From contig OZ243927.1 of NCBI GenBank assembly GCA_965213925.1, positions 3,328,001 to 3,392,000 of the forward strand: a stretch of DNA of 64,000 nt, written 5' to 3'. The position numbers and the translations under genes are program-made. Shown piece after piece: positions 1-4,911 of the stretch. The notes under the pieces are model-generated. The model worked only from the letters and a program-made list of their open reading frames with translations. It was not told the origin of the DNA and did no database searches. This stretch comes from Trueperaceae bacterium. Lineage in GTDB: Bacteria > Deinococcota > Deinococci > Deinococcales > Trueperaceae. The stretch's first letter is position 1. The number at the start of each line of letters is the position of its first letter.

Positions 1-298
1 CAGCGTGACGGACTTGCACGGCGGCTACCCAGCGCTCACCCCTCTGGACTCTCCCGCGCTTCAAGCGGCGAGTCGAGCGCTCAAAGAGGTCTACGACAAG
101 GACCCCATCTACGCCCGCACGGGCGGCACAATTCCGGTAGTCAGCACCTTTCAGCAGCTTCTAGGCGCGGAGGTCGTGTTGGTCGGCTTCGGCTTAGAGA
201 ATGACCGGATGCATTCGCCCAACGAGAAGTTCGACCTGGTCAATTACTACAGAGGTATCGAGACGAGCGCGGCGCTCCTCAAAGCGTTTGCTGATTAG
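1..298 (+). CDS. M20/M25/M40 family metallopeptidase (dipeptidase), C-terminal part; begins before the window
   Basis: GGTIP...GFGL...HSPNEKF C-terminal motifs of M20 peptidases. Confidence 0.85.
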   Translation, partial: SVTDLHGGYPALTPLDSPALQAASRALKEVYDKDPIYARTGGTIPVVSTFQQLLGAEVVLVGFGLENDRMHSPNEKFDLVNYYRGIETSAALLKAFAD

Positions 299-313
299 CG
301 CGTGTATAACGCA

Positions 314-342
314 GTAGAGACGGGTTTGAAACCCGCCTCTAC
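314..342. repeat. GTAG-type REP-like palindrome between convergent genes
   Basis: GTAGAGACGGGTTTGAAACCCGCCTCTAC imperfect palindrome; a related copy lies at 8482-8509. Confidence 0.7.
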
Positions 343-369
343 GCAATTTTTCTGTGGACAGGTTGACAA

Positions 370-1182
370 CTAGTTGAACGCTACGGCGTCTTCGTCGTAC
401 TCCTCGAGTTCTTCTTCGTACTCATATTCTAAGTCGAGGGTTTGCTCGCGCGCGACCGAATAGACGAGGAAGCTAAAGCCTGCTTTGGCGAGCCAGTCCG
501 CGACCATGTAACCGAGCTGCACGCCGACCTCCGTGGAGGAGCCTCCGAGCCCTAAAAAGGGCACCATGTAGATGACCGGGAAAAAGCCCCACGACCCCAA
601 GAGCAAGAGCACCGAGTTGGTGACGAGGCGGCTAGCGTCTTCGTTAAGCTCCGCGAGCGCGTCGTTGAGCATCCCGTAGAGCACCCAGAGGATGTAGAGG
701 AAAGGCAGCGTGCTGATGGTACCCCAAATCACGCGCGTCTGCGTATCAACGGAAATTTCGCCGGGATAACCGAGCGCGATCATGGCGACTGTCGCAACCG
801 TCAAGCGGACGCCGAGCGAGCGCGCTTTCTGCCGAGAGAAGTCGAGCACGTTGACGAGCGAGAGGAGGAGGAGCGGCACGGTGGGGAGCCAGTAGACGTA
901 GCGGTAGAGCGCAAACGGCAAAGCGCCCTCGGTCGGCACGTAGAGCCCCTCTTGGAGCGCGTAGACGCCGCGCCACTGGGTGAAGAGGAAGAGGTAGTGC
1001 AAGGCGGACAACCCGACGATGGTCGCGACCATCCAGAGCGCGGGGCGGTAGGACTCGTCGAGCTTGCGCCGCGACATGACGAAAAAGGCGGCGAGCGAGA
1101 TCATCAGCAGCGCCGTCGCGACGAACGCGACCAGAACGGCCGTGTACTGCGCCGGTGAAAGCGCACTTAAAAAGTTGAGCAT
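370..1182 (-). CDS. Microbial rhodopsin, xanthorhodopsin/Gloeobacter-rhodopsin-like, with atypical helix-C motif (Y-T-S)
   Basis: Seven hydrophobic segments; HY in helix B, RYVYWLPTVPLL, LGYPGE, WGTISTLPF, WGFFP and DWLAK (Schiff-base Lys); ATG at 1182 preceded by a GGAGAA RBS. Confidence 0.9.
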   Translation of the reverse strand: MLNFLSALSPAQYTAVLVAFVATALLMISLAAFFVMSRRKLDESYRPALWMVATIVGLSALHYLFLFTQWRGVYALQEGLYVPTEGALPFALYRYVYWLPTVPLLLLSLVNVLDFSRQKARSLGVRLTVATVAMIALGYPGEISVDTQTRVIWGTISTLPFLYILWVLYGMLNDALAELNEDASRLVTNSVLLLLGSWGFFPVIYMVPFLGLGGSSTEVGVQLGYMVADWLAKAGFSFLVYSVAREQTLDLEYEYEEELEEYDEDAVAFN

Positions 1183-1662
1183 AGTTCTCCTTTGCGGTGA
1201 GACGACGAAACATAACGTCAAAATTTTTTCTGACCGCACTAGAGCCGACGCTCTAAGAACTGTCAGTGACTTGTGTATCGTATGGGAGAGATCACGCCGA
1301 AAGGGTCAGATTTTTCATCTTTTTCAGAATGTGAATACTGGCAGATGTGGCACTCGAGTACCCATCAATTTCCTCGAAAAAAGCGTAAGAAGAGCGTGCC
1401 AGAAAGCATAAATACTTCTTAGCTCACCTTAACAAAAGTACTAGATTTTCGTGACTCCTCGAGTAAAAGAGGGAAAAGTCACATACTTGCAAGTCAGCGT
1501 TAAGCACTTAGGGTTTGGGTCTCGGGGCTCGAGCCTAAAGCCTAACTTCATCGTTCTTTCAGCCATATTCATAAACAGGGGCTTAGGGAAAACGAGGTGG
1601 TATACTTTCTTACAGGTAGTCAATACCTTACATAGCGAAGCGACATCACCTCAGGAGGAACC

Positions 1663-2772
1663 ATGCGCACATTCATCTTAGCTTCTCTTCTTTTAGCCTT
1701 GCCCTTAGCGGCTGCACAAGATTACGTCTTCGGCATCACCTACGACGCGGGCGGCAAGTTCGACGGCTCGTTCAACGAGGGCACGTGGAACGGTCTGCGC
1801 GACGCCGTGACCGACCTGGAGGACGAGGGTCTCCTCATCGACATCTTGGAGTTCGAAGGCACCCCCGACACCGCCGCGCAAGGTCAGCGCCAAATCGCCA
1901 GTCAGGGCGCAGAACTCATCCTCGCGCCGGGCTTTTTGCAAGCGGACGCGGTCGCGGCTGCCTCGCAGGAATTCCCCGAGACGAGCTTTGTCTTAATCGA
2001 CGCCGTCGCGGAGAACCCTAACGTTCGCAGCGTGCTCTTCAAAGAACACGAAGGCAGCTACTTGGTCGGCTACATCGCGGGCTCGCTCACCCAAACGGGT
2101 ACGGTCGGCTTCGTCGGCGGGATGGATATTCCGCTCATCCGCGCCTTCGACTTGGGCTATGAAGAGGGCGTCAAGGCGGCGTGCCCCGAGTGCGAGGTCA
2201 TCTCGAACTACGTCGGCGTGACCCCAGCCGCTTGGAACGACCCAGCGCGCGCCAAGGAACTCGCTACCACGCAGCAGGCGCAGGGCGCGGACATCATCTA
2301 CGCGGCGGCGGGCGCGTCGGGCAACGGCGTGATCGACTTCGTGAACCAGACCATGTGCTTTGAAGGCGGTGCAAACCGCGAGTCGCCGCTCGCGTCACAG
2401 ATAGAAAGCGTCGAAAAGAGCGACGCCTACGCCAGCAACTGCGAGGGTCAAAACCCCCTCTTCTTCATCGGCGTAGACTCGAACCAGAACCCACGCGGCG
2501 ACACCGACGGCAATCCCGAGACCTTGAACCACGGCTTGACGAGTATGCTCAAGCGTGTAGACACGGCTGCGTACAACGCCGCGATGGACGTCGCTAACGG
2601 CGAATTCGAGGGTGGCACGGAGAGCTTAGGTTTAGCCGAGGACGGCGTGGGCTACGCGGTGGACGAGTATAACGGCGCGCTCATCCCCGAGAGCTTAGTC
2701 ACCGAGTTGGAGTCCGTCCGGCAGCAGATTATCGACGGTGAAATTATGGTAACGGACTACCGCGAGCAGTAA
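1663..2772 (+). CDS. BMP family ABC transporter substrate-binding protein (nucleoside-binding type)
   Basis: Signal peptide; GGKFDGSFNE, GFVGGMDIP, IGVDSNQ, TSMLKRVD motifs; AGGAGG RBS. Confidence 0.9.
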   Translation: MRTFILASLLLALPLAAAQDYVFGITYDAGGKFDGSFNEGTWNGLRDAVTDLEDEGLLIDILEFEGTPDTAAQGQRQIASQGAELILAPGFLQADAVAAASQEFPETSFVLIDAVAENPNVRSVLFKEHEGSYLVGYIAGSLTQTGTVGFVGGMDIPLIRAFDLGYEEGVKAACPECEVISNYVGVTPAAWNDPARAKELATTQQAQGADIIYAAAGASGNGVIDFVNQTMCFEGGANRESPLASQIESVEKSDAYASNCEGQNPLFFIGVDSNQNPRGDTDGNPETLNHGLTSMLKRVDTAAYNAAMDVANGEFEGGTESLGLAEDGVGYAVDEYNGALIPESLVTELESVRQQIIDGEIMVTDYREQ

Positions 2773-2795
2773 GCCTCAGCACGAACCGTACAATG

Positions 2796-2822
2796 GGAGC
2801 CTCCGAACTGGGGGCTCCTTTT
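2796..2822 (+). terminator. Intrinsic terminator after the BMP gene
   Basis: GGAGCCTCC-GAACT-GGGGGCTCC hairpin followed by TTTT. Confidence 0.75.
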
Positions 2823-2907
2823 CGTTGTATAAGTTTCGTGTATAGGTTCCGCCGTTGTCGACATCCATGCAGGACGCCGACACAGCTTCGCAGGCTATAA
2901 TTGGTGA

Positions 2908-4911
<2,004 letters not shown>

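Follow-up and report, generated by a model that had tools for sequence, protein, structure and literature searches.

A gene on the minus strand near the start of the 64,000-nucleotide stretch of Trueperaceae bacterium contig OZ243927.1 analysed here (the window) encodes an intact opsin of the xanthorhodopsin (XR) fold, which is under purifying selection and carries a Y-T-S motif in helix C in place of D-T-E. By fold, sequence and tree position, the protein, hereafter the YTS rhodopsin, is a type-1 rhodopsin of the XR family, and together with its closest homologues it forms a small monophyletic offshoot of that family (the YTS clade). Judged from its sequence, it is very probably not an outward proton pump, and we tentatively place first the reading that it is a slow-cycling photoreceptor with a single counterion.

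The minus-strand frame at 370-1182 translates to 270 amino acids followed by a stop codon. In a stop-to-stop scan the furthest start of this frame is a GTG at 1239; we place the start at the ATG at 1180-1182 instead, because AAGGAG lies upstream of it with a 4-nt spacer and because Met-Leu-Asn is common to all orthologues. The Pfam model PF01036 (Bac_rhodopsin) matched residues 19-245 with 119.2 bits against a cut-off of 24.6. In HMMER searches the top relatives of known structure were psXR (9wfa, E = 6e-59), Gloeobacter rhodopsin (GR; 6nwd, 2e-55) and xanthorhodopsin itself (3ddl, 2e-50), with thermophilic rhodopsin (TR; 5azd) and Kin4B8 as further matches and E values from 6e-59 to 1e-48 across the set. 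All of these best solved relatives are XR-type outward proton pumps. An AlphaFold2 model (pLDDT 87.7, pTM 0.83) has seven helices, of which helix G runs on to residue 262, and a beta hairpin between helices B and C. In the Foldseek comparison psXR, GR, TR, XR and Kin4B8 rank first, with query-normalised TM scores of 0.82-0.84 and 38-46% identity, and the structures of the anion pumps NmHR and ClR rank below this group. The assignment to the XR family made in the initial annotation is thus borne out by the Pfam match, by the solved relatives and by the structural ranking.

Helix C of the YTS rhodopsin reads RYVYWLPTVPLLLLSL. In HMMER alignments with 6nwd and 3ddl, Tyr97, Thr101 and Ser108 stand opposite the D, T and E of RYVDWLLTVPLLxxE, ADWLAK stands opposite ADVLAK, and WGFFP stands opposite WGVYP or WGFYP. 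The FND that precedes RY is replaced by PFAL, which is one residue longer. The alignments and the codons of Tyr97 and Ser108 therefore uphold the central claim of the initial annotation, that Y-T-S replaces D-T-E with the loss of both carboxylates, as well as its remarks that FND is gone and that WGFYP has become WGFFP. The residues it had listed as retained, namely the Schiff-base DxxAK, the helix-B His and the carotenoid-fenestration Gly, are likewise present as Asp229 (helix G) and Lys233, His62 and Gly154 (in Trp153-Gly154), as is Arg94 of helix C. Lys233 corresponds to the ADVLAK Lys of GR and XR and is invariant in 23 of 23 clade members as well as in 154 of 154 relatives with an intact DTE motif (DTE relatives), and the retinal-pocket residues W98, L105, W198, P202 and Y205 are conserved; we infer that the YTS rhodopsin binds retinal. 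Y97 and S108 occupy the positions at which all 154 DTE relatives have a D acceptor and an E donor, and because both are missing an outward proton cycle of the xanthorhodopsin/Gloeobacter type is not expected. The His-Asp counterion complex (His62-Asp96 in XR) is also incomplete, since His62 is kept and its Asp partner is Tyr in the 3ddl alignment. Gly154 corresponds to the fenestration residue G156 of XR and G178 of GR (the latter counted by hand on the HMMER alignment); it is lost, to F or L, in 7-8 of the 23 clade members versus 6 of the 154 DTE relatives.

A word-indexed search of 5.8 billion proteins gave 2522 matches at E <= 1e-10 among 8000 scored candidates. When the 36 top matches were aligned, 12 were canonical DTE sequences and 24 carried the clade signature RY-x-Y-W-(L/T)-P-T-V-P-x-L-L-x-S, WGFFP and AD-W-x-AK, of which 23 have Tyr and one has Leu at position 97. 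A search with a profile of the clade separated 25 clusters scoring at least 353 bits from everything else, which scored 297 bits or less, and the alignment of 23 clade members has 65 invariant columns. We then built a maximum-likelihood tree of 83 rows with a quick LG+G4 search, using the 23 clade members, 20 close DTE matches, 50%-identity representatives, nine Trueperaceae rhodopsins and NDQ, NTQ, STQ and DTK outgroups, and leaving out the truncated P0006 and P0007. The YTS clade was monophyletic with an SH-aLRT support of 100 and a stem length of 0.51, and it nests among DTE sequences; support was 98 after deletion of the 15 diagnostic columns of Table 1. The backbone near the clade is weak (82-88) and the exact sister group is not settled. 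The homologues that the initial annotation had proposed to look for thus exist, as some 25 clusters forming one clade. The YTS gene is not a recent duplicate of the host's DTE pump, as the tree puts the DTE paralogue elsewhere, within a distinct group of Trueperaceae DTE sequences.

The clade holds some variation at the motif. P0287 is a Y-T-A variant, and P0008 and its cluster mate P0274 are L-T-S proteins in which Thr replaces Asp229 (LATWVGK). These two metagenome proteins from ENA, on contigs of 359 kb and 12 kb, have no carboxylate beside the Schiff-base Lys and nonetheless keep the Lys, the Arg, the His and the remaining clade signature. Unusual helix-C motifs (VTE, HTQ, STQ, ETA and EGA) were also seen in other XR-like 50%-identity representatives, namely P0124, P0141, P0190, P0232, P0242 and P0261. 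The ESM Atlas returned generic rhodopsin clusters only.

The dN/dS values that the initial annotation had proposed to compute (the ratio of non-synonymous to synonymous substitution rates, omega) were 0.107, 0.130 and 0.102 among the orthologues of the host genome (G000) and of two other Trueperaceae species of the same genus (G023 and G022), which indicates purifying selection. The DTE paralogue gave 0.027 between G000 and G023, so that the YTS gene evolves about four times faster than the co-resident DTE pump (omega 0.107 versus 0.027). The Tyr97 codon is TAC in G000, in G023 and in the metagenome contig L035 and TAT in G022, i.e., it varies synonymously. Positions 676-901 are covered by Logan contigs from two runs of the same sample, which show 0 differences and agree with Tyr at the codon, as the initial annotation had asked of raw reads, although the sample may be the source of the genome and hence not independent; independent support comes from the orthologues and metagenomic relatives, which share the same motif residues. 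A contig with 55 differences across 363-1001 was found in a marine-metagenome run. A sequencing error is ruled out by the homologues with the motif, by the agreeing Logan contigs and by the synonymous Tyr codon. The earlier argument that several co-occurring changes speak against a single error is strengthened, since the motif is fixed in a monophyletic clade under purifying selection.

Fifteen positions separate the YTS clade from the DTE relatives (Table 1). By the helix limits of the model, S59, F65, Y97, P100, F201 and W230 lie at or extracellular of Lys233, and S108, R121, F238, Q247 and Y253 lie on the cytoplasmic side. We take Tyr97, Phe201, Thr131 and Asp229 to be the equivalents of D85, Y185, D115 and D212 of bacteriorhodopsin, and Ser59 probably that of Y57. 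On this assumption, hydrogen-bond donors near the helix-G Asp have been exchanged, not merely lost. Whether the YTS clade is a new functional class inside the XR family, in which Tyr, His62 and Arg94 replace the Asp counterion and enable a mode of transport or signalling new to the family, is in our judgement a little short of an even prospect. Such a mode might be, for example, an independent inward proton pump, a hydroxyl-lined anion pump or a photosensor with a tyrosine or tyrosinate as Schiff-base partner.

Table 1. Clade-diagnostic positions of the YTS rhodopsin, defined as fixed in the clade (at least 85%) and nearly absent in relatives (23 clade members versus 154 DTE relatives)
Position	YTS clade	DTE relatives
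24	Ala	differ
55	Ile	differ
59	Ser (22/23 vs 0/154)	Ala 154/154
65	Phe	Arg 153/154
92	one-residue insertion	absent
97	Tyr	Asp 154/154
100	Pro	Leu 148/154
108	Ser	Glu 154/154
121	Arg	differ
131	Thr	Ala/Ser
201	Phe	Tyr 154/154
230	Trp	Val/Ile
238	Phe	differ
247	Gln	Lys 154/154
253	Tyr (tail)	differ

For the slow-cycling photoreceptor we propose the following scheme. With a neutral Tyr97, D229 would be the sole carboxylate counterion and the Schiff-base region would carry a net charge of +1, a pattern that is also found in Anabaena sensory rhodopsin, xenorhodopsins and schizorhodopsins. By the helix limits of the model, the extra aromatic residues F65, Y97 and W230 lie at or extracellular of the Schiff base; Phe201 lacks the Tyr hydroxyl and Ser59 supplies a new one. 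Together these changes suggest that the extracellular half-channel has been re-wired and partly plugged. Ser108 would leave no internal donor for quick reprotonation. A long-lived deprotonated or conformationally switched state might then signal via a clade-specific cytoplasmic surface made up of R121/S122 in the C-D loop, Q247 and an extended helix G with its conserved tail Tyr, and the signalling partner would be unlinked to the rhodopsin gene. We rank this reading first because of the missing internal donor, the added extracellular aromatics, the cytoplasmic clade residues and the long helix G, and also because the antenna Gly is lost more often than in the DTE relatives, the clade is rare and its rate of evolution exceeds that of the co-resident pump. 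A further hint in this direction is the donor-position Ser, which also occurs in Anabaena sensory rhodopsin.

Several points weigh against a photoreceptor. The chief one is that no transducer gene adjoins the YTS rhodopsin at the loci examined. A homologue of ASRT (PF07100, 191 bits) is present in G000 at 1.696 Mb, which is 1.6 Mb from the rhodopsin at 3.328 Mb; ASRT was not found in G022, occurs in 13 of the 128 family genomes without a YTS-specific pattern, and is present in genomes without a rhodopsin match (e.g., 5 of 12 in genus g18). In the absence of a specific co-occurrence with the YTS gene, ASRT was ruled out as its specific partner, and two MCP genes in the genome are also unlinked to it. 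Neither fused longer forms nor a fused signalling domain were found among the 8000 candidates, which counts weakly. A gene that stands alone beside a proton pump is what one typically sees for ion pumps with another specificity, as in Nonlabens and Parvularcula. Finally, the depth assigned to F65 and W230 derives from AlphaFold2 helix boundaries and not from a solved structure.

A light-driven inward proton pump that arose independently within the XR family is the next reading, possible in our view though on balance unlikely. In such a pump Tyr97 would block the extracellular acceptor, the Schiff-base proton would exit to the cytoplasm and reprotonation would run via D229, H62 and Y97. The aromatic residue at the acceptor position, the retained helix-G Asp and helix-C Arg, and His62 kept next to Tyr97 are all consistent with this route. 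The stand-alone gene co-occurs with an outward pump, as does the xenorhodopsin gene of Parvularcula oceani. The weak point lies in the cytoplasmic half, where the list of clade-invariant residues has neither a carboxylate nor a His: schizorhodopsins depend on a donor-position Glu, and xenorhodopsins rely on a His-Asp pair on the cytoplasmic side. There is also no sequence kinship to either family, as the YTS rhodopsin has the motif Y-T-S and nests in the XR family in the tree, and the aromatic residue at the acceptor position is its sole analogy to schizorhodopsins. On that analogy, a schizorhodopsin preprint states that a Phe there removes the acceptor on the extracellular side, in keeping with inward pumping.

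We rank after it, as rather unlikely, a light-driven inward pump for Cl- or another anion, in which the anion would act as a second counterion held by S59, Y97 and T101 together with R94 and the protonated Schiff base. A neutral acceptor position, a retained Thr and a non-carboxylate residue at the donor position follow the pattern of the TSA, NTQ and TSD pumps, and R94 and D229 also fit. The exchange of Ala for Ser59 is clade-specific, and the two L-T-S proteins that have lost both Tyr97 and Asp229 and still have the Lys are most easily explained by an anion counterion. Close relatives are found in a marine and a biofilm metagenome, and the gene stands alone beside a proton pump. Known anion pumps, however, carry a small polar T, N or S at the acceptor position, and a bulky Tyr there, along with the added W230 and F65, would take up the space of an anion site instead of opening one. 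Also lost is the Arg that 153 of the 154 relatives have at position 65 on the extracellular side.

That the protein is still an outward proton pump appears improbable. It would then need another acceptor, either D229 or a tyrosinate at position 97 together with His62 and Arg94, and would be reprotonated slowly from the bulk. D229, R94, H62 and T101 are conserved along with the entire retinal pocket, D229 could have a higher pKa without the hydroxyl of Tyr201, and pumps without a donor carboxylate do exist (the DTG and DTK types). All 154 DTE relatives, however, keep both the acceptor Asp and the donor Glu, the host already owns a DTE pump, and the coordinated change at 15 positions argues for an altered function. 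Least probable of all is a non-functional relic or a sequencing or assembly artefact, the latter part being already refuted. In its favour, the D-to-Y change is a single base and omega exceeds that of the DTE paralogue. Against it, 3 genomes and about 25 clusters, metagenomic sequences among them, have an uninterrupted frame with dN/dS values of 0.10-0.13 among the orthologues, Tyr97 is encoded by synonymous codons, contigs agree at this position and 65 columns are invariant.

A rhodopsin match (E <= 1e-20) was found in 22 of the 128 Trueperaceae species genomes. Motif typing of 115 open reading frame matches at 114 loci gave 106 DTE, 2 NDQ, 1 DTA and 7 YTS rows; the YTS rows are six matches plus the query and represent only four distinct genes, those of G000, G023, G022 and L035. 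Among the species representatives of the family, the YTS gene is limited to one genus, where it occurs in all three species. A scan of genome contigs returned one locus, the G022 orthologue, and a metagenome scan, in which one of two search patterns was family-general, placed one of 80 loci (L035) in the clade. A P450 gene adjoins the rhodopsin in L035 and is 74-75% identical to genes in three Trueperaceae genomes and at most 66% identical in the others; outside the family, identity did not exceed 57% in a search that covered 301 genomes of the phylum. From this one P450 gene, the second YTS subclade is probably also of Trueperaceae origin. Elsewhere in the family, G125 (L030, G125:C8:1353729-1357469) encodes a D-T-A protein, RYADWIGTVPLILAATM, besides its DTE gene, and one contig of G088 (L018/L033, G088:C422) carries an NDQ gene of the sodium-pump type and a DTE gene about 1 kb apart.

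The host genome has two rhodopsin genes, the YTS gene and a canonical DTE xanthorhodopsin at C1:152,7xx (RYIDWLLTVPLLLTE, with WGVYP and ADVLAK), and one blh (BCD) gene for retinal synthesis (179.5 bits); blh is also present in G022 and G023, which lends indirect support to retinal binding. G023 has a DTE paralogue, and the G022 copy is interrupted in the assembly. Frame breaks split both this paralogue (L032, G022:C2:1070764-1074261) and a lactate permease gene (L004 8925-10710) in G022, and assembly indels rather than pseudogenes are likely to be behind them. The YTS rhodopsin gene is monocistronic, convergent with an M20 peptidase gene and transcribed divergently from the gene of a Bmp lipoprotein. 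Its neighbours in G000 also include LigA and a glycerate-kinase-like gene. The Bmp side alone is common to G000 and G022, the neighbours in L035 are PEGA, P450 and TPR genes, and no conserved neighbour or operon partner was found across the YTS loci of G000, G022 and L035. The ASRT gene of G000 (L115, G000:C1:1694620-1697970, frame 1489-1866, minus strand) immediately follows a cytochrome P450 gene on its downstream side and is distant from the two rhodopsin genes. A link between that P450 and the one in L035 was ruled out, as they share only a 29%-identical local match.

The gene and the features around it are listed in Table 2. The 520 nt 5' of the ATG, which largely overlap the intergenic region, have a GC content of 0.44 versus 0.59 for the window. 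Upstream blocks are conserved in the three orthologous loci (the window, L006 and L004), in the order ATGAAAAAT(C/T)TGACC, 21 nt, TA(C/A)GATA and then GTCAC(T/C)GAC(A/G)GTT; the TTGACC-like hexamer reads CTGACC in G000. This hexamer and TA(C/A)GAT may form a promoter, with the reservation that the 21-nt spacing exceeds that of a standard sigma-70 promoter. Consensus scans for sigma-70 promoters and terminators gave 0 matches, no Rfam element was found in window 1-3000, and no RNA run was among the listed holders of the sequence. The hairpin between the convergent genes has a folding energy of -25.3 kcal/mol (z = -4.3), is unique in the window and was not flagged by the terminator scan. Summed Logan depth at 300-345 is about 70-fold above that of the gene (approximately 1400 versus 20; runs X1 and X4), and many Logan contigs break at 311-347, which suggests that this palindrome, or a similar one, recurs in other contexts.

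Table 2. Features of the YTS rhodopsin locus in window coordinates
Feature	Position	Strand	Remarks
YTS rhodopsin coding sequence	370..1182	-	270 aa; stop codon 370-372
Tyr97	codon 892-894	-	GTA on + strand = TAC on coding strand
Thr101	codon 880-882	-	
Ser108	codon 859-861	-	TCG
Asp229	codon 496-498	-	
Lys233	codon 484-486	-	
Shine-Dalgarno-like AAGGAG	1187..1192	-	4 nt 5' of ATG 1180-1182; block AGGAGAACTATG kept in G023
Divergent AT-rich intergenic region, rhodopsin-Bmp	1240..1662		~420 bp
Near-perfect 13-bp hairpin	314..342		between convergent M20 peptidase and rhodopsin genes; T-run 3' on + strand only

The initial annotation had not recognised YTS among described motifs, and we found no paper that names or describes it in the full-text literature searched, which mostly excludes subscription journals; it may be listed in a large motif catalogue. 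No earlier report of the motif or of the function of the clade was found in the same literature. A paper on cyanobacterial-mat microbiomes describes DTE-less rhodopsin homologues that are also without the lysine, and its accessible part does not mention Trueperaceae. With an aromatic hydroxyl at the counterion site, a second helix-C proline and a swapped Tyr/Phe near the helix-G Asp, the YTS offshoot is a natural experiment on the counterion complex. To our knowledge, each earlier change of a conserved helix-C motif (NDQ, NTQ, TSD, FSE, DTL/DTS) marked a new ion specificity or direction, and several such variants became optogenetic tools. The characterised members of the XR family are, as far as we know, all outward proton pumps, and the YTS clade would show halotolerant Trueperaceae using light beyond proton pumping. 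Expression in E. coli is routine for close relatives of this small, stand-alone protein, so that its function is directly testable.

With XR, GR, psXR and thermophilic rhodopsin, which are DTE outward proton pumps and some of which have a carotenoid antenna, the YTS rhodopsin shares His62, Arg94, Thr101, Asp229, Lys233, the GYPGE loop, the B-C beta hairpin and Gly154. In contrast to this group it has Tyr97 for Asp and Ser108 for Glu, FND is replaced and extended by a residue, and the His-Asp counterion pair cannot form; Leu is further exchanged for Pro100, Tyr for Phe201, Val for Trp230, Arg for Phe65, Ala for Ser59 and for Thr131, and Lys for Gln247. With schizorhodopsins (FSE), which are inward proton pumps, it has in common an aromatic residue, non-ionisable or only weakly ionisable, at the counterion position and the helix-G Asp as the remaining carboxylate. 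Schizorhodopsins, however, form an unrelated branch of the superfamily and have Ser rather than Thr and an essential donor Glu rather than Ser. The NTQ, TSA and TSD anion pumps resemble the YTS rhodopsin in their neutral acceptor, the hydroxyl one turn below, the lack of a Glu donor and the retained Arg and helix-G Asp, but differ in having a small polar residue where it has a bulky Tyr, and identity is only 23-24%. Anabaena sensory rhodopsin (DTS) has the same Ser at the donor position and a single carboxylate counterion, and slow, non-pumping photochemistry is plausible for the YTS rhodopsin as well. The Anabaena protein keeps the helix-C Asp, has Pro at the site of the helix-G Asp and is co-transcribed with ASRT, whereas the YTS rhodopsin has lost the helix-C Asp, keeps the helix-G Asp and is unlinked to ASRT.

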